From NCBI RefSeq assembly GCF_003334815.1, contig NZ_QOWO01000002.1: a stretch of 64,000 nucleotides of DNA; one strand, given 5' to 3'. The notes under the pieces were generated by a model, which did not search any database, was not told where the DNA came from, and saw only the letters and a program-made list of their open reading frames with translations. The translations under genes and the position numbers were made by a program. Positions 2,335-24,174 of this stretch are shown here, one piece after another. Source of the DNA: Escherichia coli. Lineage in GTDB: Bacteria; Pseudomonadota; Gammaproteobacteria; Enterobacterales; Enterobacteriaceae. Positions within the stretch are counted from its first letter, which is position 1. Every line of letters begins with the position of its first letter.

Positions 2335-3255
2335 TTAATTCAGACGAACCGGCATCCCGGAGCGGTTTTTAATCGCTTCATCAAGAACAACCTGATCAAC
2401 ATCTGGCTGACCGGTCACTGTCTGCACGCTCTTCGTCAGGGTAATTGGCACAATTTCCTGACCTTCAAACTGGGCTTCGGTGGTAGACAGCGGGTTATGG
2501 ACTTCAATATAACGGCTGCCGTCTGGCTCGGTGGTCGCTTTTACCGGCTCATCAATAAACTGTACGCGGGTACCGACCGGTACTTTCTCGAACAGGAATT
2601 TGATGTCTTCGTTACGCAGACGCACACAACCATGACTTACACGCAGGCCGATACCGAAGTTGGCGTTGGTGCCATGGATAGCATACAGGCGACCGATATA
2701 GAGTGCATACAGCCCCATCGGGTTATCCGGACCTGCCGGAACGACAGCCGGAAGCGGTTCGCCCGCAGCGCGGTACTCTGCGTGCATTTTGGCGGTCGGC
2801 GTCCAGGTCGGGCCTGCTTTTTTACGCTCAACTTTGGTGGTCCAGTTGATAGGCGTATCTTTGCCTAACTGACCAATGCCGATCGGCAGCACGATAACGG
2901 TGTTGGTCCCTTTCGGATAGTAATAAAGACGCATCTCAGCACTGTTAATGACGATGCCTTCATGAACGGTATCCGGCAGGATCAGCTGCTGCGGAATGTT
3001 CAGTACAGTACCGCCTTTCGGCAGGAAGGTATCCACACCCGGGTTCGCTTCCATCATATTGGAAAGCCCCATCTGGTACTCGGCGGCAAAATACTCCAGC
3101 GGCTGAGTGTTACCTTCAGGAATGGTGATCACCTGATTCTGACCAACCAGGCGACTCCCGTCGGTTGGCAGAGGATAAGTTACCGCAGAGGCGGTACTGC
3201 AAAAGCCGACAACAGCGAAGGCCGCTGCGAATAATGTTTTCAATTTCATATTCAT
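2335..3255 (-). CDS. ldtB: L,D-transpeptidase LdtB (YbiS), 306 aa
   Basis: Track ORF; N-terminal signal peptide [24 protein letters not shown]; length and sequence as recalled for YbiS. Confidence 0.92.
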
Positions 3256-3473
3256 GTTAAGCGAGATTTTGTGCCTGGCAGGCCATTGGGTTGAGAATAT
3301 TAGAGTATTGGAAGCGCATTATAAGTTCATTCCAGCTCACAGTGAAATCAGATGTGTACGAAATCACATTTTTTGCCTTTGGCTTGAGTGTAGACCTTAA
3401 GCGAGGAGCAGGATCTTCTTTCAGACTTATGGCATAATGCGCGGTTTGTCATATCTCTTTTCAGGATACGCCT

Positions 3474-5066
3474 GTGTTAGTTTCCAGTAACGTCACCATG
3501 CAGTTCGGCAGTAAGCCGTTGTTTGAAAACATTTCCGTCAAATTTGGCGGCGGCAACCGTTACGGCCTGATTGGCGCGAACGGTAGTGGTAAATCCACCT
3601 TTATGAAGATCCTCGGCGGCGACCTTGAGCCGACGCTGGGTAACGTTTCCCTCGATCCCAACGAGCGCATTGGTAAACTGCGTCAGGATCAGTTTGCCTT
3701 TGAAGAGTTCACTGTGCTGGATACGGTGATCATGGGGCATAAAGAGTTGTGGGAAGTGAAGCAGGAGCGCGACCGCATCTATGCTTTGCCGGAAATGAGT
3801 GAAGAAGACGGCTATAAAGTGGCCGATCTGGAAGTTAAATACGGCGAAATGGACGGTTACTCTGCGGAAGCTCGCGCCGGTGAACTGTTGCTTGGCGTGG
3901 GAATTCCAGTGGAACAGCACTACGGCCCGATGAGTGAAGTTGCTCCTGGCTGGAAGCTGCGTGTGCTTCTGGCGCAGGCGCTGTTTGCTGATCCGGATAT
4001 TCTCCTGCTCGACGAACCGACCAACAACCTCGACATCGACACCATTCGCTGGCTGGAACAGGTGCTGAACGAGCGTGACAGCACCATGATCATCATCTCG
4101 CACGACCGTCACTTCCTTAACATGGTCTGTACCCACATGGCGGATCTGGATTACGGCGAGCTGCGCGTTTATCCGGGTAACTACGATGAGTACATGACGG
4201 CGGCGACCCAGGCGCGTGAACGTCTGCTGGCCGATAACGCCAAGAAGAAAGCGCAGATTGCTGAGTTGCAATCTTTCGTTAGCCGCTTTAGCGCCAACGC
4301 CTCGAAATCTCGCCAGGCAACTTCGCGCGCGCGCCAGATTGATAAAATCAAACTGGAAGAGGTGAAAGCCTCCAGCCGTCAGAACCCGTTCATCCGTTTT
4401 GAACAGGATAAGAAACTGTTCCGTAACGCGCTGGAAGTGGAAGGTCTGACCAAAGGGTTTGATAACGGTCCGCTGTTTAAAAATCTCAACCTGCTGCTGG
4501 AAGTGGGTGAAAAACTGGCGGTACTGGGTACCAACGGCGTCGGTAAATCAACGCTGCTGAAAACGCTGGTGGGCGATCTGCAACCGGACAGCGGCACCGT
4601 AAAATGGTCTGAGAACGCGCGCATTGGTTACTATGCTCAGGACCACGAATATGAGTTTGAAAATGATCTGACCGTGTTCGAATGGATGAGCCAGTGGAAG
4701 CAGGAAGGCGATGACGAGCAGGCGGTACGCAGTATTCTCGGTCGTTTGCTGTTCAGCCAGGACGACATCAAAAAGCCAGCTAAAGTGCTTTCCGGTGGGG
4801 AAAAAGGGCGGATGCTGTTTGGTAAGTTAATGATGCAGAAGCCGAACATTCTGATCATGGACGAACCGACCAACCACCTGGATATGGAATCCATTGAGTC
4901 GCTGAACATGGCACTGGAACTGTATCAGGGCACGCTGATCTTTGTTTCACACGACCGTGAGTTCGTAAGCTCCCTGGCGACCCGCATTCTGGAAATCACC
5001 CCGGAACGCGTGATCGACTTTAGCGGTAATTACGAAGATTACCTGCGTAGTAAAGGGATCGAGTAA
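3474..5066 (+). CDS. ybiT: ABC-F family ATPase YbiT (two ABC domains, no membrane domain), 530 aa
   Basis: Track ORF with GTG start; two Walker A motifs (GANGSGKST and GTNGVGKST) and two LSGG signature motifs. Confidence 0.93.
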
Positions 5067-5125
5067 GTGATTATCCGTCACCCCGATACTGTCGGGGTGA
5101 CGGCGGCTGATGACAAATGCAAAAT

Positions 5126-5226
5126 AGCCTGATGCGCTACGCTTATCAGGCCTACGCAGTACCTGCAATATATTGAATCTGCAGGACTTTGTAGGCCGGA
5201 TAAGGCGTTAACGCCGCATCAGGCAT
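5126..5226. repeat. REP/BIME element (two inverted REP units with a central palindrome)
   Basis: gcctgatgcgctacgcttatcaggcctac and gtaggccggataaggcgttaacgccgcatcaggc are classic REP sequences; related copies occur at 47205-47302 and 48258-48344. Confidence 0.85.
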
Positions 5227-5306
5227 TAACAAAGCGCATTTGTCAGCAATCTGAGTAACGTCGAATCGATTTTCTTAATCCCACATCAATTCACTTCCAT
5301 TAATTC

Positions 5307-6572
5307 TCAAACATCCATGCCCAACGCTCGCTTACCGTGAATGTTGAGGTCGGCAAGCGTAAAGCGTCCTTCCCAGTTTGTTTCATAGTCCTCGCGCGGG
5401 AAGTCGCCCGGCGATGCGCCTTTTTCCAGTGCGGCCTTCACCTTGTGCGCGTAGGCAAGATTTTTCTCGCACATCGGTGCCGCAGGAATGTACATCACGT
5501 TGCCCCAACCTTGTTGATTTTCAACGGGGGCAACGGAATGGATGACGTCGCAGTGCCACCAGACGGAGTCTCCGGCTTCGAGTTTTGGAATGCTGGTTAA
5601 CGCCTCAATCAACAGTGGATGCCATTGCTCTGATACCGGCAATACTCTTCCGGGCGCTACGCCGCACAGTTCATCCTCCGGCACATCATCAAGCAGCGGA
5701 CGTAACAGTACGTACGCCATAGCTTCAGGAATGGGCACGACGTGCAGCAGCCCCTGACCAGGCAGCATATCAGAGAGCGCTGTCCAGCCCTGGAATGTCC
5801 GAAACACGGAACATTTGGTGGTGTTGTCCACCGTGTACTCTTCAACTTCCGTACGATGTGCCGCATGCCAGGGATCATATTGCGCCAGATTGCCATTAAA
5901 GACGTTGGCGAAAACGCGCTGATACGCTGGAAGCAGCCAGCGTTCCAGTGCCCCGGAGTCGGTATGCGCTCCAAGACCTTTGGAGGTCGTTCCGGGCGGA
6001 CGGCGGCGGATACGGTCAGGGTAGATGACGCTCACATCCGGGTTAAACCATTGCTTTCCATCACTTTCAAATGTCCACAGACGATTGAGAAACGACTGCG
6101 CATTCGCCATTTCTTCACTCTGGCGGGCCTGCATTTGCGCCTGCGACCAGTAGATGGGGTAAATCTCGGGACGTGAAGCGCTGAGCGTCCCGAAGAAATT
6201 ATCGCCGGGGCCTTTGTAGACCTCGTCAAAGCGGTTGCGGTCCAGATAGTCCAGCATCGACTGATCCCAGCCTAGCGCTTGTTCGCGGGGGAAATGGCCT
6301 TTTATCACCGCACAACCGCGACGTTTAATCTGTTCGCGCTGCTCTGCAGTAACATGACCTGCTTTGATATCGGCATAAGACAGCACCGGCCAGACGGCAT
6401 CGCCCTGTGCTTTGAGTGCGTTGATTTCAGCCACTCGCGTGGCAATGTCATCGCTTAGCTGATTAAAGATCTGCTGGACGTCGCCAAGCTGCGCCCGCAG
6501 CGCGTGCTTCATCTGACGGATAGCTGCTTTGTGATCGGCAGGCAATGTGTCGCTGGTAAAAGTAGAAGCCAT
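5307..6572 (-). CDS. ybiU: DUF1479-family protein YbiU, 421 aa
   Basis: Track ORF 5307..6578 begins at a GTG; the ATG two codons in (MASTFTSD...) follows the SD gagagg and gives the 421-aa length I recall. Confidence 0.88.
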   Translation of the reverse strand: MASTFTSDTLPADHKAAIRQMKHALRAQLGDVQQIFNQLSDDIATRVAEINALKAQGDAVWPVLSYADIKAGHVTAEQREQIKRRGCAVIKGHFPREQALGWDQSMLDYLDRNRFDEVYKGPGDNFFGTLSASRPEIYPIYWSQAQMQARQSEEMANAQSFLNRLWTFESDGKQWFNPDVSVIYPDRIRRRPPGTTSKGLGAHTDSGALERWLLPAYQRVFANVFNGNLAQYDPWHAAHRTEVEEYTVDNTTKCSVFRTFQGWTALSDMLPGQGLLHVVPIPEAMAYVLLRPLLDDVPEDELCGVAPGRVLPVSEQWHPLLIEALTSIPKLEAGDSVWWHCDVIHSVAPVENQQGWGNVMYIPAAPMCEKNLAYAHKVKAALEKGASPGDFPREDYETNWEGRFTLADLNIHGKRALGMDV

Positions 6573-6681
6573 AACCACCTCTCATTAACTTTCATTCGAA
6601 ACCATTCTGATTTGCATGTGACAATATAAGTTATAAATAAGTTAATGCAAGTTTAATGATTTGATGTGATGTACAGGATGT

Positions 6682-6716
6682 AAAAAGAAGGGAAAACCGG
6701 AGCGCACGGCTCCGGT
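6682..6716 (-). terminator. rho-independent terminator downstream of ybiV
   Basis: Minus-strand hairpin accggagc-cgtgcg-ctccggt followed by tttcccttcttttt. Confidence 0.7.
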
Positions 6717-6723
6717 AGAGAGG

Positions 6724-7539
6724 TCAGCTGTTAAAAGGGGATGTGTTATCCAGCACCGCCTGAATCACATTCAGCGCGCCTTCATGATTATTATCATCGG
6801 TAGCGTAACGGGCGATTTGTTTAATGTTTTCCGCAGCATTGCCCATCGCAAAGGAATAACGCGCCATTTTCAGCATCTCCGCATCGTTACCGCTGTCGCC
6901 AATCGCTACCACATTTTGCGGTGACAGATCCCAGCGTTTCAGTAACCGCGAAATACCGTTTGCTTTATGTAGACCGGGAATAATCAGGTCGATAAAGCCA
7001 AAACCACTGGTAACGGGTTTCATAATGCCATCGAGCGCTACGTGCAGTTTGTCGATCACTAACGGGATTTGTTCATCCGGCAGGTTGAGCGAAAACTTGA
7101 ACAGTACGTCGTCAATCTCCTGATAATCTTTTACAGGTTTCAGGCGATGGTAGTGTTTTGCCATCAGTGCGACAAATGCTTCGGGGGCATTTTCGCTGAC
7201 ATATGCACTTTGCAGACCGCAGGCGACAAAATTGAGTTGCTTATCTTTTAGCAACTCGCCAATAACAATCCGCGATTCATGTCGGGTCAGTTCGCCGTGG
7301 AACAACTGCTTGCCATGTTCGTAAACCAGTGCGCCGTTTTCCGCGACAAAAGAGATCTCATCCTTTAGCTCAGGAAAGAATGAAATAAGCTGGTAATACT
7401 GATTACCGCTGGCAACAACGAACTTAATGCCGCGCTTTTTCAGTTCCTGATATTGCGCCATAAAACGTGGTTGGTTGTACGTTTTGGCGTCGTTAAGAAA
7501 AGTACCGTCCATGTCTGTGACGATAACTTTTACGCTCAT
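6724..7539 (-). CDS. ybiV: sugar phosphatase YbiV (HAD superfamily, Cof-type), 271 aa
   Basis: Track ORF; HAD motif I DMDGT near the N-terminus; paralogous to ybjI in this same window. Confidence 0.93.
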
Positions 7540-7684
7540 AGGTGTGCTCCTGGCTCGAAAATGAAACCGTAACAGTGTAATAACAATGTGACGCAGAGCA
7601 CAAATTATATTTCGAATGAAAGTAAGGATGAAATTGATGATGTGAATGATTTAGCCCGGCGACGACGCCGCCGGGCCGAGGAGA

Positions 7685-10117
7685 TTACAGCATATGTTCA
7701 GTACGGGCGATGATATCGTCCTGAGCGTCTGGAGAGAGCGCGGTGAAGAACGCGGAATAGCCCGCGACACGCACTACCAGATCGCGATACTGATCGGGAT
7801 GTTTTTTCGCATCCAGCAGCGTTTCGCGGGAAACGATGTTGTACTGAATATGCCAGCCTTTATGCACTTCAAAGAAGGTACGCAGCAGGATCATCAGTTT
7901 CTGCTTGTCAGATTCGTTCTCCAGCGTTGCCGGATTCAGTTTCTGGTTGAGCAACACGCCGCCGAGAATCGCTGCCGTAGGCAGTTTACCCACTGAGCCA
8001 ATGACCGCAGTAGGGCCAAGATGGTCAGTACCGGAGGCCGGGCTTGCGCCTTCTGCCAGCGGGGTGTGGGCTTTACGCCCGTCCGGTGTTGCCATAGTCT
8101 GCGCGCCAAACGGTACGTTAGCGGAGATTGATGACGTACCCGCGTAATAGTTGCCGCCAACCGGACCACGACCGTAGCGCGGATTATGGTACTGTTTCAG
8201 TTCGTCGATATAGGTCTGATAAGCGCGAGCCAGCAGCGTATCGACAGTATCATCGTCGTTGCCGTACTTCGGCGCACCGTTAATCAGCCGCTGACGCAGC
8301 TGCTCGTGAGTCAGGCCGTCGAAGTCATCTGCCAGTGCGGCAGCAAGCTGTTGCTGACCAATCGCACCTTGTTCAAACACCAGTTTCTTCACTGCCGCCA
8401 GGCTGTTGCCGAGGTTGGCAATGCCGACCTGCAGGCCAGAAACCCAGTCATATTTCGCGCCGCCTTGCTTGATACTTTTCGCTCGCTCAATACAGTCATC
8501 CACCAGCGCCGAGCAGAGAATATCGTGCACGTTCTCTTCCAGCATGGTGTCGACGACATATTCGATTTCGATTGATTTGCGGGTGTAGTAACGGATTTGC
8601 GTATCCCACGCGTCCATCACTTCATCGAAGTTGTTGAAGTTACCTGCCGACAACGCTTTTTCTTGTGGCAGGAACACTTTGCCGCTGGTGGCATCATGCC
8701 CGCCTTCCAGCGCCGCCAGCATCACGCGGGCGAAGTTGATAAAGCTCATGCCGGTACAGCGATAGCCCCATTTGCCACCGACGGCGGTTTCTATACAACC
8801 AATCGCTGCGTAGTCATAAGCGTCCTGCGGTTCAATACCGAGTTTAATAAATTCCGGGATCACGATTTCGTCGTTGTTGAACGCCGGCATCCCGAAGCCG
8901 CAACGGATCACCTGTACGCAGGCGTCGAGGAAATCGTTGCTCATTCCTGCATGGTAACGCACGCTGAGGTTAGGCTGAGTGGAACGCAGGCGACCGCAGG
9001 ATTCGAGGATCGCGTAAGAGAGTGGATTCACCGCGTCCATTGGTTGACCATCAACCAGATTTTGCCCGCCAATAGTGACGTTCTGATACAGCGGACTTCC
9101 CGCAGAGGCTTTTGAGTGTGAGCCGGAGCGGATCTTGTTCACTTCCAGCAGTTTCAGCCAGCAGCTATGCAGCATCTCGATGGCGTGTTCGCGATCCAGC
9201 GTCTGGTTGAGTTCAACGTCGCGGCGATAGTACGGGTAGAGATACTGGTCCATACGACCAAACGATACTGAGTGACCGTTAGATTCGATCTGCAAAATCA
9301 ACTGGATGAAGTAACACAGTTGCAGCGCCTGCCAGAAAGTCTGCGGCGGCTGGTGGGCGATAAGATCGCAGTTTTCTGCCATCGCCAGCAGTTCATCGCG
9401 ACGGCTTTCGCGGGTTTCGGTCGCGGCCATTTCACGCGCCAGGGCAGCGAAACGTTCAATGTGTTCACTGACTGCCACCAGCACGATATCAATCGCTTTC
9501 AGGAATTGCTCACCGTGTAAATCTTCCAGCACCGTCAGGTTGATGCGCGAGCGACGTTCCGCTACTTTCTCGCGCAGACCATCAAGCCCTTTTTCCAGCA
9601 GCAGCGGGAAATTCACCGCCAGGTGCGCATCGCCGGAGGTCATATTGCCTTCCGCTTTAATGATTCCGGTCGCCAGCAGACCTTTTTGCTCATCGGTAAA
9701 CATGCCGTAGCAGCGATCCTGTACGGTCTGACCGCGCCACCACGGGCACACTTCATGCAGAACGCGTTTGTTCTCTTCGCTCACCGCAAAGCCAGCACCG
9801 GGACGATCTGCCAGATCATCAATCTCTTTTTCGATCCACGAGACAGTATATTCCGGGAAGATCGGCGCGGCGCGAACTTCGCTTGCCTGGTTGCCAATGA
9901 TCAACTCATCGTGTTTGATCCAGATGGTGCGATTCGCCAGGTGATGCGCCAGTGCCAGCGCGCGACGTACCGGGATCGGCTTATCGAGATGTTGTTGATA
10001 CATCTCGGTATAGTGCTGCGCGCGCTCGGTACAGACTGGCGGTTTCACAATATGCACCAGCGCATTTTTGTGCGCTTTAATGCGGTCGCTGAGCGTGTCC
10101 AGTTTCAGTGTGGTCAT
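7685..10117 (-). CDS. ybiW: glycyl-radical enzyme YbiW (PflF, pyruvate formate-lyase homologue), 810 aa
   Basis: Track ORF; C-terminal glycyl-radical motif RVAGYSA present; length as recalled. Confidence 0.93.
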   Translation of the reverse strand: MTTLKLDTLSDRIKAHKNALVHIVKPPVCTERAQHYTEMYQQHLDKPIPVRRALALAHHLANRTIWIKHDELIIGNQASEVRAAPIFPEYTVSWIEKEIDDLADRPGAGFAVSEENKRVLHEVCPWWRGQTVQDRCYGMFTDEQKGLLATGIIKAEGNMTSGDAHLAVNFPLLLEKGLDGLREKVAERRSRINLTVLEDLHGEQFLKAIDIVLVAVSEHIERFAALAREMAATETRESRRDELLAMAENCDLIAHQPPQTFWQALQLCYFIQLILQIESNGHSVSFGRMDQYLYPYYRRDVELNQTLDREHAIEMLHSCWLKLLEVNKIRSGSHSKASAGSPLYQNVTIGGQNLVDGQPMDAVNPLSYAILESCGRLRSTQPNLSVRYHAGMSNDFLDACVQVIRCGFGMPAFNNDEIVIPEFIKLGIEPQDAYDYAAIGCIETAVGGKWGYRCTGMSFINFARVMLAALEGGHDATSGKVFLPQEKALSAGNFNNFDEVMDAWDTQIRYYTRKSIEIEYVVDTMLEENVHDILCSALVDDCIERAKSIKQGGAKYDWVSGLQVGIANLGNSLAAVKKLVFEQGAIGQQQLAAALADDFDGLTHEQLRQRLINGAPKYGNDDDTVDTLLARAYQTYIDELKQYHNPRYGRGPVGGNYYAGTSSISANVPFGAQTMATPDGRKAHTPLAEGASPASGTDHLGPTAVIGSVGKLPTAAILGGVLLNQKLNPATLENESDKQKLMILLRTFFEVHKGWHIQYNIVSRETLLDAKKHPDQYRDLVVRVAGYSAFFTALSPDAQDDIIARTEHML

Positions 10118-10122
10118 GGTTG

Positions 10123-11022
10123 TTATCCTCGTAAGGTCGCGGTTAACCCTTTCTGGCAGGCATACTGCTGGGCAAAGTCGAGCAGTTCTGGCGCATCAAG
10201 CGGTTTTTCCGGGGCGTCATAGGGCAGATTAAGTAAGTGATATTTGTTGATGCCCAGCGTGTGGTAGGGCAGAAAATGAATTTCGCCAACGTGCAGCTCG
10301 TCGGCGGCAAAATCGGTAATGGCTTTTACAGAGGTTTCGTCGGCATTAAAGCCCTGAATCAGCGGCACGCGGATAATGATTTTTTTGCCCGCTGCGGCGA
10401 GTTTTTTCAGGTTATCCAGCACTCTGGCGGCGTTACCGTCGGTCCACTGTTTAAACGGCGCGTCGGCAACGTGTTTTAAATCGGCAAGAAACAGATCGAT
10501 ATAGGGCAGAGAAGGGGCGATATATTTCCACGGCACATGCAGACAGGTTTCTACCGCAGTATGAATGCCTGCCTCGTGGCTGGCTTGCAGTAGCGCCATC
10601 GCCATTTCCGGCTGCATAAAGGGCTCACCACCCGAAAGCGTTAAACCGCCGCCGCTGCGATCGTAAAACGGTTTATCGCGCAGAACGGTCGTCATGATCT
10701 CCTCAACGCTTTTCACTTCACCACACACGGTTAATGCCTGTGTCGGACAGCAGTCGGTTAACGCCGTCAGATGCTCCGGGGTTAACTTTTCCCGATGAAT
10801 AAGCAAACCATTCAGCGCGCGCTCAATCACTTCCGGCGCGGCCTTAGCGCACAGCTCGCAGCCTTCCAGACACAGTCGTGCGTCATACAGCAGATCCTGC
10901 GTGCGGGCGCGGCTTTCCGGGTTCTGACACCAGCGGCAGCCCAGCGAACAGCCTTTAAGAAATACGACCGTGCGGATACCGGGGCCATCATGGGTCGAGT
11001 AGCGCTGAATATTGAAAATCAT
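10123..11022 (-). CDS. ybiY: glycyl-radical enzyme activase YbiY (PflE, radical SAM), 299 aa from second ATG
   Basis: Track ORF extends to 11049 (308 aa), but that ATG has no SD; the ATG at 11022 is preceded by gagagg; radical-SAM cysteine motif CSLGCRWC present; sits 5 bp upstream of ybiW. Confidence 0.85.
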
Positions 11023-11152
11023 AGTTGCCTCTCTATTTCGTTCAAGCATTAAAATACTTTCGAATGAAAGTTAGATTGATGTGCGTCAACTGTTCAGAGA
11101 GTTTTCCCGTGATAGTCTACATTCAGACAAAAAGTACATTTTGAGGATGGTT

Positions 11153-11815
11153 ATGGAACTGTATCTGGATACTTCAGACGTTGTTGCGGTGAAGGCGCTG
11201 TCACGTATTTTTCCGCTGGCGGGTGTGACCACTAACCCAAGCATTATCGCCGCGGGTAAAAAACCGCTGGATGTTGTGCTTCCGCAACTTCATGAAGCGA
11301 TGGGCGGTCAGGGGCGTCTGTTTGCCCAGGTAATGGCTACCACTGCCGAAGGGATGGTTAATGACGCGCTTAAGCTGCGTTCTATTATTGCGGATATCGT
11401 GGTGAAAGTTCCGGTGACCGCCGAGGGGCTGGCAGCTATTAAGATGTTAAAAGCGGAAGGGATTCCGACGCTGGGAACCGCGGTATATGGCGCAGCACAA
11501 GGGCTGCTGTCGGCGCTGGCAGGTGCGGAATATGTTGCGCCTTACGTTAATCGTATTGATGCTCAGGGCGGTAGCGGCATTCAGACTGTGACCGACTTAC
11601 ACCAGTTATTGAAAATGCATGCGCCGCAGGCGAAAGTGCTGGCAGCGAGTTTCAAAACCCCGCGTCAGGCGCTGGACTGCTTACTGGCAGGATGTGAATC
11701 AATTACTCTGCCACTGGATGTGGCACAACAGATGATTAGCTATCCGGCGGTTGATGCCGCTGTGGCGAAGTTTGAGCAGGACTGGCAGGGAGCGTTTGGC
11801 AGAACGTCGATTTAA
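11153..11815 (+). CDS. fsaA: fructose-6-phosphate aldolase 1 (FsaA), 220 aa
   Basis: In-frame ATG at 11153 gives [32 protein letters not shown], the FsaA N-terminus as recalled; the track ORF is a 24-codon upstream extension. Confidence 0.92.
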
Positions 11816-11890
11816 CCGGACGTTCTGCATCCTCATAAATTGCTGATGACGTGGCGGAGTGCCGCGTCTTATCAGGCCTGGAGGTGGCAA

Positions 11891-12640
11891 TTACTGCCCA
11901 CACACCTCACACCCCGGATTACGCATCAGTTTCATTTCGCGAAACTGACAGGTCATCGCATCGTACATGACGATTTTCCCGCTGGCCGGTTTGCCATAAC
12001 CTGCCAGCATTTTGATCGCTTCCATTGCCTGCAACGAACCAATTACGCCGATCAACGGTGCCATTACGCCTGCTTCCACGCAGGTTAATGCATTTTCACC
12101 AAACAAACGGCTAAGGCAGCGATAGCACGGTTCACCGTCCTGATAAGTAAAGACGGTGATTTGACCTTCCATACGAATTGCCGCGCCGGAAACCAGCGGT
12201 ACCTTCGCGGCAAAACAGCCTGCGTTCAGTTGATTACGTACCGCAACGTTATCCGTACAGTCGAGCACCAGATCGTGTTCAGCAATCAATGCTGCAAGTT
12301 CTGCGTCATCCAGCAGTGCATTGACTGGCGTAATCGCGATATGTGGGTTGATCCGCGTCAGGGCGTCACGGGCGGATTCCACCTTCGGTTGCCCGACCGT
12401 GGCATCACTGTGCAGTGTCTGGCGTTGCAGATTCGAGAGCGAAACCGTGTCGAAGTCGAGCAGCGTCAGGTTACCGACACCGGCGCTTGCCAGATACTGC
12501 GAGGCTGCACAGCCGAGGCCGCCCAGGCCCACTATCAGCACGCGAGAATCTTTCAGCGCCTCCTGGCCGTCAAAATCAAAGCCGCGCAGAATGATTTGCC
12601 GGTTGTAGCGCAGCATCTCCTGATCGCTGAGTTCCGCCAT
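11891..12640 (-). CDS. moeB: molybdopterin-synthase adenylyltransferase MoeB, 249 aa
   Basis: Track ORF; ThiF/MoeB nucleotide-binding motif GLGGLG and C-terminal CxxC pair. Confidence 0.95.
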   Translation of the reverse strand: MAELSDQEMLRYNRQIILRGFDFDGQEALKDSRVLIVGLGGLGCAASQYLASAGVGNLTLLDFDTVSLSNLQRQTLHSDATVGQPKVESARDALTRINPHIAITPVNALLDDAELAALIAEHDLVLDCTDNVAVRNQLNAGCFAAKVPLVSGAAIRMEGQITVFTYQDGEPCYRCLSRLFGENALTCVEAGVMAPLIGVIGSLQAMEAIKMLAGYGKPASGKIVMYDAMTCQFREMKLMRNPGCEVCGQ

Positions 12641-22845: not shown

Positions 22846-24174
22846 ATGTCCAGAATCAATAAGTTCGTACTTACAGTCAGTCTGCTGATTTTTATCATGA
22901 TTTCAGCAGTTGCCTGCGGGATCTACACTCAAATGGTAAAGGAACGGGTGTATAGCCTGAAACAGTCCGTTATTGATACTGCTTTTGCGGTGGCAAATAT
23001 TGCTGAATATCGGCGTAGCGTGGCAATTGATCTTATCAACACGCTAAATCCCACGGAGGAACAGCTGTTGGTTGGTTTGCGCACAGCTTACGCCGACTCG
23101 GTTTCCCCCTCTTATTTGTACGATGTCGGTCCTTATCTGATTTCCAGTGACGAATGTATTCAGGTAAAGGAGTTCGAGAAAAATTATTGTGCAGATATTA
23201 TGCAGGTTGTGAAGTATCGACATGTCAAAAATACAGGGTTTATCTCTTTTGACGGTAAAACCTTCGTCTATTACCTCTATCCGGTAACTCACAATCGTAG
23301 TCTGATATTTTTGCTTGGTCTGGAGCGTTTTTCTTTACTGTCAAAATCGCTGGCGATGGACAGCGAGAACCTGATGTTCTCTCTATTTAAGAACGGTAAA
23401 CCGGTGACCGGTGATGAATATAATGCTAAAAACGCCATCTTCACCGTTTCGGAAGCGATGGAGCACTTCGCCTATTTGCCGACCGGATTGTATGTATTTG
23501 CGTATAAAAAAGATGTTTATTTGCGGGTTTGTACATTGATTATTTTCTTTGCCGCATTGGTGGCAGTGATATCGGGTGCCAGTTGCCTCTATCTGGTACG
23601 CAGAGTGATTAATCGTGGTATTGTGGAGAAAGAAGCCATCATTAATAACCATTTTGAACGCGTACTGGATGGCGGGCTTTTCTTTTCGGCTGCCGATGTC
23701 AAAAAACTCTACAGTATGTATAACTCGGCGTTCCTGGACGACCTGACCAAAGCAATGGGCAGAAAATCCTTTGACGAAGATTTAAAAGCGCTGCCGGAAA
23801 AAGGCGGTTATTTGTGCCTGTTTGACGTCGATAAATTCAAAAACATTAACGACACCTTCGGTCATTTGCTGGGCGATGAAGTGTTGATGAAAGTGGTGAA
23901 AATCCTTAAATCACAGATCCCGGTAGATAAAGGTAAAGTCTACCGCTTCGGCGGTGACGAATTTGCGGTGATTTATACGGGTGGAACGCTGGAAGAGTTG
24001 CTATCGATTCTAAAAGAAATCGTTCATTTCCAGGTGGGAAGCATTAATTTAAGTACCAGTATCGGTGTAGCACATTCAAATGAATGTCCTACCGTCGAAC
24101 GCTTGAAAATGCTGGCGGATGAGCGGCTGTATAAGAGTAAGAAAAACGGCAGGGCACAGATTAGCTGGCAGTAA
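22846..24174 (+). CDS. dgcI: diguanylate cyclase DgcI (YliF), GGDEF-domain membrane protein, 442 aa
   Basis: Track ORF; intact GGDEF motif in RFGGDEFAV. Confidence 0.92.

Follow-up and report, generated by a model that had tools for sequence, protein, structure and literature searches.

The ybiU-ybiV-ybiW-ybiY/fsaA region of Escherichia coli, a probable cluster for anaerobic use of 1,5-anhydroglucitol under the unlinked repressor YciT

The window analysed here is a stretch of 64,000 nucleotides (nt) of Escherichia coli DNA (assembly GCF_003334815.1, contig NZ_QOWO01000002.1), and the genes under study are ybiU, ybiV, ybiW, ybiY and fsaA, located between its positions 5307 and 11815. With high confidence, this region is the E. 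coli cluster for the anaerobic use of 1,5-anhydroglucitol (AG, 1-deoxyglucose), repressed by the unlinked DeoR-type regulator YciT. When positions 5307-11815 were used as a megablast query against complete E. coli genomes, all 5,426 were found to match, several of them at 100% identity. The matching genomes annotate ybiU, ybiV, ybiW, ybiY and fsa between the flanking genes ybiT and moeB, and the counterpart in K-12 MG1655 is NC_000913.3 857,796-864,304 (a window position being the K-12 position minus 852,489). The limits of the five genes, with the starts of mechanically called open reading frames (ORFs) where these differ, are as follows.

5307-6572, minus strand: ybiU (mechanical ORF start at 6578)
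6724-7539, minus strand: ybiV (RefSeq annotation)
7685-10117, minus strand: ybiW (RefSeq annotation)
10123-11022, minus strand: ybiY (RefSeq annotation; the mechanical ORF extends to 11049)
11153-11815, plus strand: fsaA (RefSeq annotation; mechanical ORF start at 11081)

An earlier interpretation made from the letters alone (the sequence-only reading) had placed a glycyl-radical enzyme and its activase beside ybiV, fsaA and ybiU, and the RefSeq annotation of the matches agrees with it for all five genes, coordinates included.

The product of ybiW was found to be 100% identical to K-12 YbiW (tblastn), and PDB entries 8ID7 and 8YJN ('Probable dehydratase YbiW') match it over residues 1-810 (E=0, 1863 bits). 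The sequence RVAGYSA (residues 783-789, window 7751-7771), with the glycine at G786, conforms to the glycyl-radical motif RVxG[FWY]. A second motif, GCIE (window 8789-8800), aligns through C441 and E443 with the GCVE of the B12-independent glycerol dehydratase 1R8W, and on this alignment C441 would be the thiyl cysteine and E443 the base. The active loop of pyruvate formate-lyase (PFL) has Cys-Cys, unlike the Cys-x-Glu of the dehydratases. YbiW scored 1410.9 bits against TIGR01774 (PFL2-3; cut-off 678.2) but only 165 bits against the PFL equivalog TIGR01255 (cut-off 994), and the match to 1R8W (E 1e-163) is far stronger than that to PFL itself (1H16, E 3e-44). Because YbiW is closer to glycerol dehydratase than to PFL, and because its IGC(441)IE(443) aligns with IGCVE, it is assigned by these comparisons to the eliminase class and not to the formate-lyases. 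The description of YbiW as a pyruvate formate-lyase homologue in the sequence-only reading holds at the level of the superfamily, and beyond that level the protein is far closer to glycerol dehydratase and carries the Cys-x-Glu loop.

YbiY contains the motif CSLGCRWC (CX3CX2C; residues 25-32, window 10927-10950) and additional cysteine clusters at residues 51-58 and 91-100, and it matched TIGR02494 with 370 bits (cut-off 174). It is on these grounds classed as the radical-SAM activating enzyme for YbiW. A gap of 5 nt separates ybiY from ybiW, which indicates an operon. FsaA matched the profile NF009296 with 451.5 bits (cut-off 306) and has the Schiff-base lysine Lys85 within VVKVP, while YbiV is a Cof-type HAD-IIB hydrolase (TIGR00099, 221 bits, cut-off 137) with the nucleophile motif DMDGT at residues 9-13.

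A substrate for YbiW has been published. As summarised in a review (PMC12441222), Ma et al. (J Am Chem Soc 146:26187, 2024) reported that YbiW opens AG-6-phosphate to give 1-deoxy-fructose-6-phosphate, and that PflD, a paralogue of YbiW, cleaves 1,5-anhydromannitol-6-phosphate to the same product. The same summary attributes the uptake and phosphorylation of both AG and 1,5-anhydromannitol to the phosphotransferase system (PTS), states that E. coli and many gut bacteria then grow on AG, and notes that the AG reaction needs the glycyl radical and hence strict anaerobiosis (PMC12441222). The anaerobic sugar or sugar-phosphate module proposed in the sequence-only reading is borne out by this YbiW reaction; its further statement that the substrate of YbiW is not firmly established has been outdated since 2024. 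That view can be traced to outdated naming. YbiW reaches the cut-off of none of the NCBIfam equivalog models and carries a name at subfamily level only; as of June 2026, NCBIfam holds no specific YbiW model, and the RefSeq names are 'glycyl radical protein' or 'putative pyruvate formate lyase'. For the steps downstream of YbiW, FsaA or FsaB reportedly cleaves 1-deoxy-fructose-6-phosphate to glyceraldehyde-3-phosphate and hydroxyacetone, and GldA is said to reduce hydroxyacetone to 1,2-propanediol.

The genes are joined by a shared sequence element. A 14-nt sequence, TTTCGAATGAAAGT, was found in three exact copies, at 6588-6601 (minus strand), 7610-7623 (plus strand) and 11058-11071 (plus strand), and the rest of the 64 kb showed no further copy at up to two mismatches. 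All three are intergenic, being located 5' of ybiU, in the ybiW-ybiV spacer (5' of ybiV) and between the divergent ybiY and fsaA. The shared 13-bp motif mentioned in the sequence-only reading is real, and slightly longer than was given there. In a shuffle control, again with two mismatches allowed, a mean of 0.61 matches was obtained and 4 of 100 shuffles reached three, which makes the count weak when taken alone; the motif is considered not to be due to chance because up to 80 other species have it conserved at these three places. With two added bases, the ybiY/fsaA copy becomes a perfect 16-bp palindrome, ACTTTC-GAAT-GAAAGT, and the consensus is ACTTTC-N4-GAAAGT. The three candidate YciT operators (all unstranded) are listed below.

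6588-6603: candidate operator O-U (ACTTTCATTCGAAACC), 10 of 12 arm positions, its near edge 16 nt 5' of the ybiU start codon
7608-7623: candidate operator O-V (TATTTCGAATGAAAGT), 10 of 12 arm positions, located between ybiW and ybiV about 70 nt 5' of the ybiV start
11056-11071: candidate operator O-Y (ACTTTCGAATGAAAGT), 12 of 12 arm positions, common to the divergent ybiY and fsaA, between a predicted FNR box and the ybiY -10 hexamer

Conservation of these sites was assessed in 80 Enterobacterales loci encoding a YbiW orthologue (84-99% identity), with distances taken from the first base of the 16-mer to the start codon. The ybiY operator is perfect (12/12) in 63 of the 80 loci, its distance to the ybiY start is 49-54 nt in 69 of the 80, and fsaA adjoins ybiY divergently in most of the set. 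At least 9 of 12 positions are kept in the ybiV operator in 47 of 48 loci (distance 80-86 nt in 46 of the 48), and at least 10 of 12 in the ybiU operator in 45 of the 46 loci that carry ybiU (distance 22-31 nt in 44 of the 46). The arms hold 1.96 bits per position compared with 0.53 in the flank. The central tetranucleotide of the ybiV operator is ATTC or GAAT depending on the species, as would be expected if the palindromic arms are the recognised part.

Repression of these genes by YciT is documented. Gao et al. (2021, Nucleic Acids Research; PMC8464067) applied chromatin immunoprecipitation with exonuclease treatment (ChIP-exo) to uncharacterised transcription factors, and for the DeoR-type YciT assigned peaks to ybiV and ybiY that were among the strongest of 49. 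Upon deletion of yciT, the log2 fold change was 7.7 for ybiY, 7.0 for ybiU, 3.5 for ybiW, 2.2 for ybiV (a 4.6-fold rise) and 1.8 for fsaA (Dataset S6, PMC8464067), and the data were said to have 'hinted at an uncharacterized pathway' consisting of exactly these five genes (PMC8464067). Co-regulation through a common motif, as suggested in the sequence-only reading, agrees with this derepression of all five genes. The same reading had named a lack of co-expression as the result that would speak against it, and in the published deletion data the genes rise together.

The text of Gao et al. gives no sequence motif for YciT (PMC8464067). Palindromes of the operator type were found inside five other YciT ChIP-exo peaks, at yfcV (AATACTTTCCGAATGAAAGTTA), sixA, rdcA, yjiT and pdeR (coordinates converted from NC_000913.2 to NC_000913.3), while the region of the ompX peak holds no operator-like site. 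We infer that ACTTTC-N4-GAAAGT is the YciT operator, a conclusion which is well supported by these comparisons of sequence. Conversion of the peak coordinates relied on a shift of +776 from the ChIP-exo reference, confirmed to be NC_000913.2; when read directly as NC_000913.3 the two peaks of the cluster land inside ybiU and ybiY, and no single shift fits both. YciT itself scored 488 bits against its own NCBIfam model, its relatives being AgaR, GlpR and SrlR. Within the window, the sole other operator-like site (10/12) is ACATTCAAATGAATGT at 24072-24087, in the 3' end of an ORF of 442 aa (22846-24174), and it was taken as a chance occurrence. We take the product of yjjI (DUF3029) to be a glycyl-radical-like protein paired with the activase YjjW. 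A YciT peak is also listed at this gene (Dataset S4, PMC8464067), and further peaks are found at the cyclic di-GMP genes pdeR, rdcA, pdeF and dgcT (PMC8464067).

The spacer between ybiY and fsaA contains a second conserved element. Read in the direction of ybiY, the order is TTGAC-GCAC-ATCAA, TCTA, the operator, ATTTTAATG..., and finally GAGAGG-N6-ATG. Two features of the ybiY promoter were predicted there.

11076-11089, unstranded: FNR-type box, TTGAT-GTGC-GTCAA on the plus strand and TTGAC-GCAC-ATCAA in the direction of ybiY, 9 of 10 positions of TTGAT-N4-ATCAA
11048-11053, minus strand: predicted -10 hexamer of ybiY, TTTAAT, placed by spacing, with a predicted transcription start at about 11041

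Of the 68 orthologous loci whose operator scores 11/12 or better, 66 have a box of at least 8/10, in 65 of these at the same 18-nt offset 5' of the operator, and the box is perfect in 14 of the 68. The half-sites hold 1.63 bits per position, compared with 0.38 for the spacer and 0.53 for the flank, the four spacer bases and the flanks varying freely. The sequence ATTTAAT, 3' of the operator, is conserved in 66 unique orthologous sequences. CRP was considered as the reader of the box and rejected, the conserved half-sites being TTGA/TCAA (FNR type) and not GTGA/TCAC. With the box centred at -41.5, as for a class II FNR site, TTTAAT would occupy -12 to -7 and the operator -30 to -15, a position at which a bound repressor would exclude RNA polymerase. 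The ybiYW promoter thus appears to be FNR-dependent and of class II, a prediction made from the conserved box at about -41.5 and the operator between it and the -10 hexamer. In shaken glucose-M9 cultures, the mean normalised counts were 24 for ybiY, 142 for ybiW and 6,488 for ybiU (data of PMC8464067), and the low values of ybiY and ybiW in aerated culture despite derepression fit a promoter dependent on an anaerobic activator. A consensus promoter scan proposed a -35/-10 pair at 11045-11018, which was rejected as the ybiY promoter as it overlaps the ybiY start codon. On the fsaA side of the spacer, GAGAGTTTTCCCGTG (CACGRNAAAACC on the opposite strand; window 11098-11112) is a conserved sequence, situated between the FNR box and fsaA in the fsaA-bearing loci of Escherichia, Citrobacter and Enterobacter, and in the alignment it is absent from loci that lack fsaA. 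This sequence may belong to the fsaA promoter or be a binding site of another kind.

From these observations the following course of events is proposed. AG would enter through the PTS and thereby become AG-6-phosphate, a step that is published. YciT would bind the palindromes 5' of ybiY/fsaA, ybiV and ybiU and repress the five genes, binding in the region and repression being published and the identity of the operators predicted here; its inducer is probably AG-6-phosphate or the product formed from it, by analogy with other DeoR-family repressors. With the predicted FNR requirement of the ybiYW promoter added, the oxygen-sensitive YbiW would be made only when the substrate is present and oxygen is absent. 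YbiY would install the radical on Gly786 of YbiW, the thiyl radical of Cys441, aided by Glu443, would take a hydrogen from AG-6-phosphate, and the ring oxygen would be eliminated to yield 1-deoxy-fructose-6-phosphate. FsaA would then cleave this compound to glyceraldehyde-3-phosphate and hydroxyacetone, and GldA, encoded outside the cluster, would convert the latter to 1,2-propanediol, both of them reported steps with which the gene context agrees. YbiV, as a sugar phosphatase, and YbiU, as an iron- and 2-oxoglutarate-dependent oxygenase by its fold, would be accessory members of the regulon.

Several known systems resemble this one. The YbiW/YbiY-FsaA pathway of K-12 (Ma et al. 2024; 8ID7, 8YJN) is encoded at the same locus, with an identical YbiW and the same gene order and neighbours, so that no difference exists at the gene level. 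The PflD-PflC/frwCBD/ptsA/fsaB/gldA locus of E. coli (89 min) is the paralogous route for 1,5-anhydromannitol-6-phosphate and likewise combines a glycyl radical enzyme, its activase and an Fsa-type aldolase; PflD (PDB 8YJO) matches YbiW at E 2e-145. That locus, unlike the ybi cluster, brings PTS components of its own and gldA, and is in turn without equivalents of ybiU and ybiV and without a YciT operator. Control of the K-12 pflD/frw/fsaB/gldA locus by YciT was accordingly rejected as no intergenic operator is found there, only two intragenic 9/12 matches. YbiW shares its fold, glycine radical motif and Cys-x-Glu loop with the glycyl radical eliminases (1R8W; the propanediol, hydroxyproline and sulfopropanediol dehydratases; choline trimethylamine-lyase), whose activases have extra Fe-S cluster motifs as YbiY does. 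Unlike in those enzymes, it is the ring oxygen of a cyclic polyol phosphate that leaves, and the result is ring opening without loss of water or an amine. As a repressor with three predicted palindromic operators, YciT is similar to the sugar-phosphate repressors of the DeoR/GlpR/AgaR/SrlR type, but in E. coli its gene is about 480 kb from its main targets, though adjacent to them in other genera.

This adjacency was examined across the 80 loci. A yciT orthologue (58-81% identity to E. coli YciT) adjoins fsaA-ybiY-ybiW in 18 of them, from several genera. Buttiauxella, Serratia, Cedecea and 'Enterobacter pulveris' share the order rnb-pdeR-[fsaA, ybiY, ybiW]-yciT-...-yciH-pyrF (loci L062-L064, L067-L069, L076 and L080-L082, at about 6,300-11,200 in each, compared with L083 at 2598-3347), whereas E. 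coli retains yciT alone at this place, between pdeR and osmB-yciH-pyrF. In Escherichia, Citrobacter, Enterobacter, Klebsiella and their relatives, the enzyme genes, accompanied by ybiV and ybiU, are found between moeAB and ybiT. Because the E. coli yciT locus is the site of the joint cluster elsewhere, it would seem that the regulator and the enzymes were once one unit, which was split in the Escherichia/Citrobacter/Enterobacter/Klebsiella lineage.

A more complete arrangement was found in Rouxiella aceris (L055, 3074-17107), where a yciT-like gene, a ybiU-like gene, fsaA, ybiY and ybiW occur together with genes for a sugar kinase of the ROK family and a glycerol/propanediol dehydrogenase of the gldA type, another yciT-like gene, an MFS transporter of the GluP/FucP type with an operator-like site in front of it (15332), and ptsG. 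The YbiU homologue of this locus (66% identity) is again linked to yciT-like, fsaA and ybiYW genes, in another order. As judged from its gene content, the Rouxiella locus would unite uptake, phosphorylation, ring opening, aldol cleavage and reduction, and it supports the proposed pathway. A different context was seen in six Yersinia species, in which ybiY-ybiW has sgrR on one side and an SgrS-like RNA on the other, with a SetA/SetB-type efflux pump after the RNA; fsaA, yciT and the YciT operator are absent from these six loci. In Yersinia alsatica (L070, 5007-12134) the order is a thiamine pyrophosphate (TPP) riboswitch, sgrR on the minus strand, ybiY and ybiW on the plus strand, the SgrS-like RNA at 10441-10563 and the efflux pump. 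The RNA matched RF00534 with 26.2 bits (E 4e-5), which is below the gathering score of 37. The TPP riboswitch is at the same position in L073, and L072, L075, L077 and L079 likewise have ybiY-ybiW without fsaA. This synteny suggests that AG-6-phosphate may be handled as a stress metabolite in Yersinia.

A literature search returned no functional paper on DUF1479 or YbiU. YbiU matched Pfam PF07350 (Gig2-like, formerly DUF1479) at E 2e-154, and crystal structures are available for YbiU (2DBI, 2DBN, 2CSG), for a Yersinia pestis homologue (4RGK) and for Candida Gig2 (6AKZ). Structure comparison revealed a double-stranded beta-helix of the PhyH-like Fe(II)/2-oxoglutarate dioxygenases, with the sugar-acting enzymes EvdO1, HygX and KanJ among the structural neighbours. 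A putative metal triad is formed by H203 and D205 (window 5958-5966) and H345 (within 5538-5555). Each of the three is retained by at least 90% of 20 homologues (27-50% identity), and the triad is kept in 4RGK (PHVDGG ... VIHSV) and in Gig2 (LHLDSS ... LPHEV). The homologues were taken from a search of representative sequences, as a plain search gave near-identical enterobacterial sequences only; the family is small, with 1,249 clusters at 50% identity (E up to 0.001). Distant DUF1479 homologues were observed in sugar ABC-transporter operons, one with two short-chain dehydrogenases and another with a lactonase, a sugar-acid dehydratase, an aldolase of the 2-keto-3-deoxy-6-phosphogluconate (KDPG) type and a dihydroxyacetone kinase.

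The distribution of ybiU within the species is uneven. Among the 5,426 E. coli genomes, about 4,330 carry the K-12-type gene and about 240 an allele of about 77% nucleotide identity, while about 850-1,000 lack ybiU and show a clean ybiT-ybiV junction that is about 1.46 kb shorter (compared region 5060-6720). It is also absent from Escherichia albertii (L004). Some E. coli carry IS621 or an island with a LacI-family regulator between ybiT and ybiU. On the side of ybiV, one further feature was noted by consensus scan.

6696-6716, minus strand: terminator-like hairpin (ACCGGAGCCGTGCGCTCCGGT followed by a T run), directly 3' of the ybiV stop

A -35/-10-like pair at 6684-6656 on the minus strand, also from the consensus scan, comes after this hairpin, which would separate ybiV from a promoter of ybiU's own.

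The oxygenase fold of YbiU taken together with its YciT operator implies that an oxygen-requiring enzyme is co-repressed with an oxygen-sensitive one. It is conceivable, though rather unlikely, that YbiU is the aerobic counterpart of YbiW and hydroxylates C1 of AG or AG-6-phosphate to give glucose or glucose-6-phosphate, the substrate being conjectural. The fold and triad, the conserved operator of its own, and the very high expression in aerated culture without YciT while ybiYW remains low would fit such a role, as would the relinkage in Rouxiella, the sugar-acting structural neighbours and the distant homologues in sugar-uptake operons. If it were true, the YciT regulon would comprise two routes for one substrate divided by oxygen, with the FNR-dependent YbiW acting anaerobically, YbiU aerobically and YbiV as a safety valve.

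Some observations weigh against parts of the reading of the region as a YciT-repressed AG cluster. The FsaA and GldA steps are those reportedly described by Ma et al., backed here by the gene context, and the roles of YbiV and YbiU in the AG module are putative. Next to ybiW, neither ybiV nor ybiU is present in Serratia, Buttiauxella, Brenneria, Pantoea, Cedecea, Atlantibacter and Yersinia; since the two genes are absent from these genera, and ybiU from about one fifth of E. coli, they would not be needed for the core pathway. The literature search found no paper linking ybiY with FNR, and the transcription start used in the promoter model is a predicted one. The two YciT peaks of the cluster (858,455-858,488 and 862,873-862,900 in NC_000913.2, corresponding to window 6742-6775 and 11160-11187) sit 104-154 bp to the right of perfect operators, while five peaks elsewhere contain the motif exactly, and the ybiV operator has no peak in the published list (PMC8464067).

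The assignment to AG was weighed against other explanations. That YbiW and YbiY form a pyruvate or 2-ketoacid formate-lyase system, with sugar-phosphate enzymes as coincidental neighbours, deserves almost no credence. K-12 RefSeq still labels ybiW 'putative pyruvate formate lyase' and the glycyl radical fold is indeed common to YbiW and PFL (1H16), but the match to 1R8W is much the stronger, TIGR01255 falls far below its cut-off, and GCIE aligns with the dehydratase motif GCVE, where PFL has Cys-Cys. Adjacency to fsaA and the common operator are moreover conserved across genera, and the idea is contradicted by the published substrate, AG-6-phosphate (PMC12441222). It might instead be argued that only ybiU and ybiV stand outside the AG module, as unrelated neighbours which share the repressor or respond indirectly. 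The fsaA-ybiY-ybiW core does occur without them in the seven genera named above, ybiU has been deleted in E. albertii and many E. coli and is divergent in a further 240 or so, and distant DUF1479 homologues are found in unrelated sugar ABC-transporter operons. On balance this was judged improbable, as each of the two genes has its own operator at a fixed distance in 45-47 other loci, deletion of yciT derepresses both, and in Rouxiella the ybiU homologue has been relinked to yciT-like, fsaA and ybiYW genes.

Another possibility, regarded as unlikely but worth consideration, is that the regulon chiefly relieves sugar-phosphate stress caused by AG-6-phosphate made by the glucose PTS, growth on AG being a by-product. 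YciT would then sense this dead-end analogue of glucose-6-phosphate and call upon the phosphatase YbiV, the oxygenase YbiU and, without oxygen, YbiW. YigL is the phosphatase of the SgrS response and YbiV belongs to the same Cof-type HAD phosphatase subfamily, so that under the stress idea it could plausibly be a relief valve. All six Yersinia species place ybiY-ybiW inside the glucose-phosphate stress locus, although the SgrS match there is below the Rfam gathering score, and ybiU and ybiV are expressed in aerated culture after removal of YciT. The SgrR-SgrS-YigL-SetA response deals with non-metabolisable glucose-6-phosphate analogues made by the PTS, but in contrast to it the E. coli ybi cluster has no small RNA (Rfam) and degrades the compound rather than only expelling it. 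In humans AG-6-phosphate is toxic and is removed by a dedicated phosphatase, G6PC3 (PMC12441222), whereas no data on AG toxicity in E. coli were found. The review that covers Ma et al. states that the pathway sustains growth on AG (PMC12441222), the cluster keeps a catabolic aldolase, and Rouxiella adds a kinase, a transporter and gldA as in a typical catabolic operon, all of which point to the catabolic AG cluster.

Identification of the cluster is correct and already known, its enzymology having been published in 2024 and its co-regulation in 2021. Inference from sequence context has re-derived a published result, to which the present analysis adds a simple and testable regulatory model consisting of the operator, the FNR box and the yciT synteny. 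Together these give YciT a more specific role than the 'osmolarity' role proposed in 2021. AG is the most abundant polyol in human blood and a clinical marker of glycaemia, and it gives rise to the toxic 6-phosphate that underlies the neutropenia of glycogen storage disease type Ib and of G6PC3 deficiency (PMC12441222). A probiotic approach would need a bacterial enzyme that degrades AG with oxygen present (PMC12441222), and it is for this reason that the unassigned regulon members YbiU and YbiV are the worthwhile part. The first has an oxygenase fold and is repressed along with the anaerobic enzyme, and the second is a phosphatase.

An Rfam scan of window 4500-12500 gave matches associated with repetitive extragenic palindromic (REP) sequences only, with no riboswitch or small RNA in the cluster. 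These REP-type palindromic repeats are located at 5148-5230, between ybiT and ybiU, with a match to ES036/CssrF of 41.6 bits (above the gathering score) and one to naRNA4 (below the gathering score). It is at this REP region that IS621 sits in some strains.

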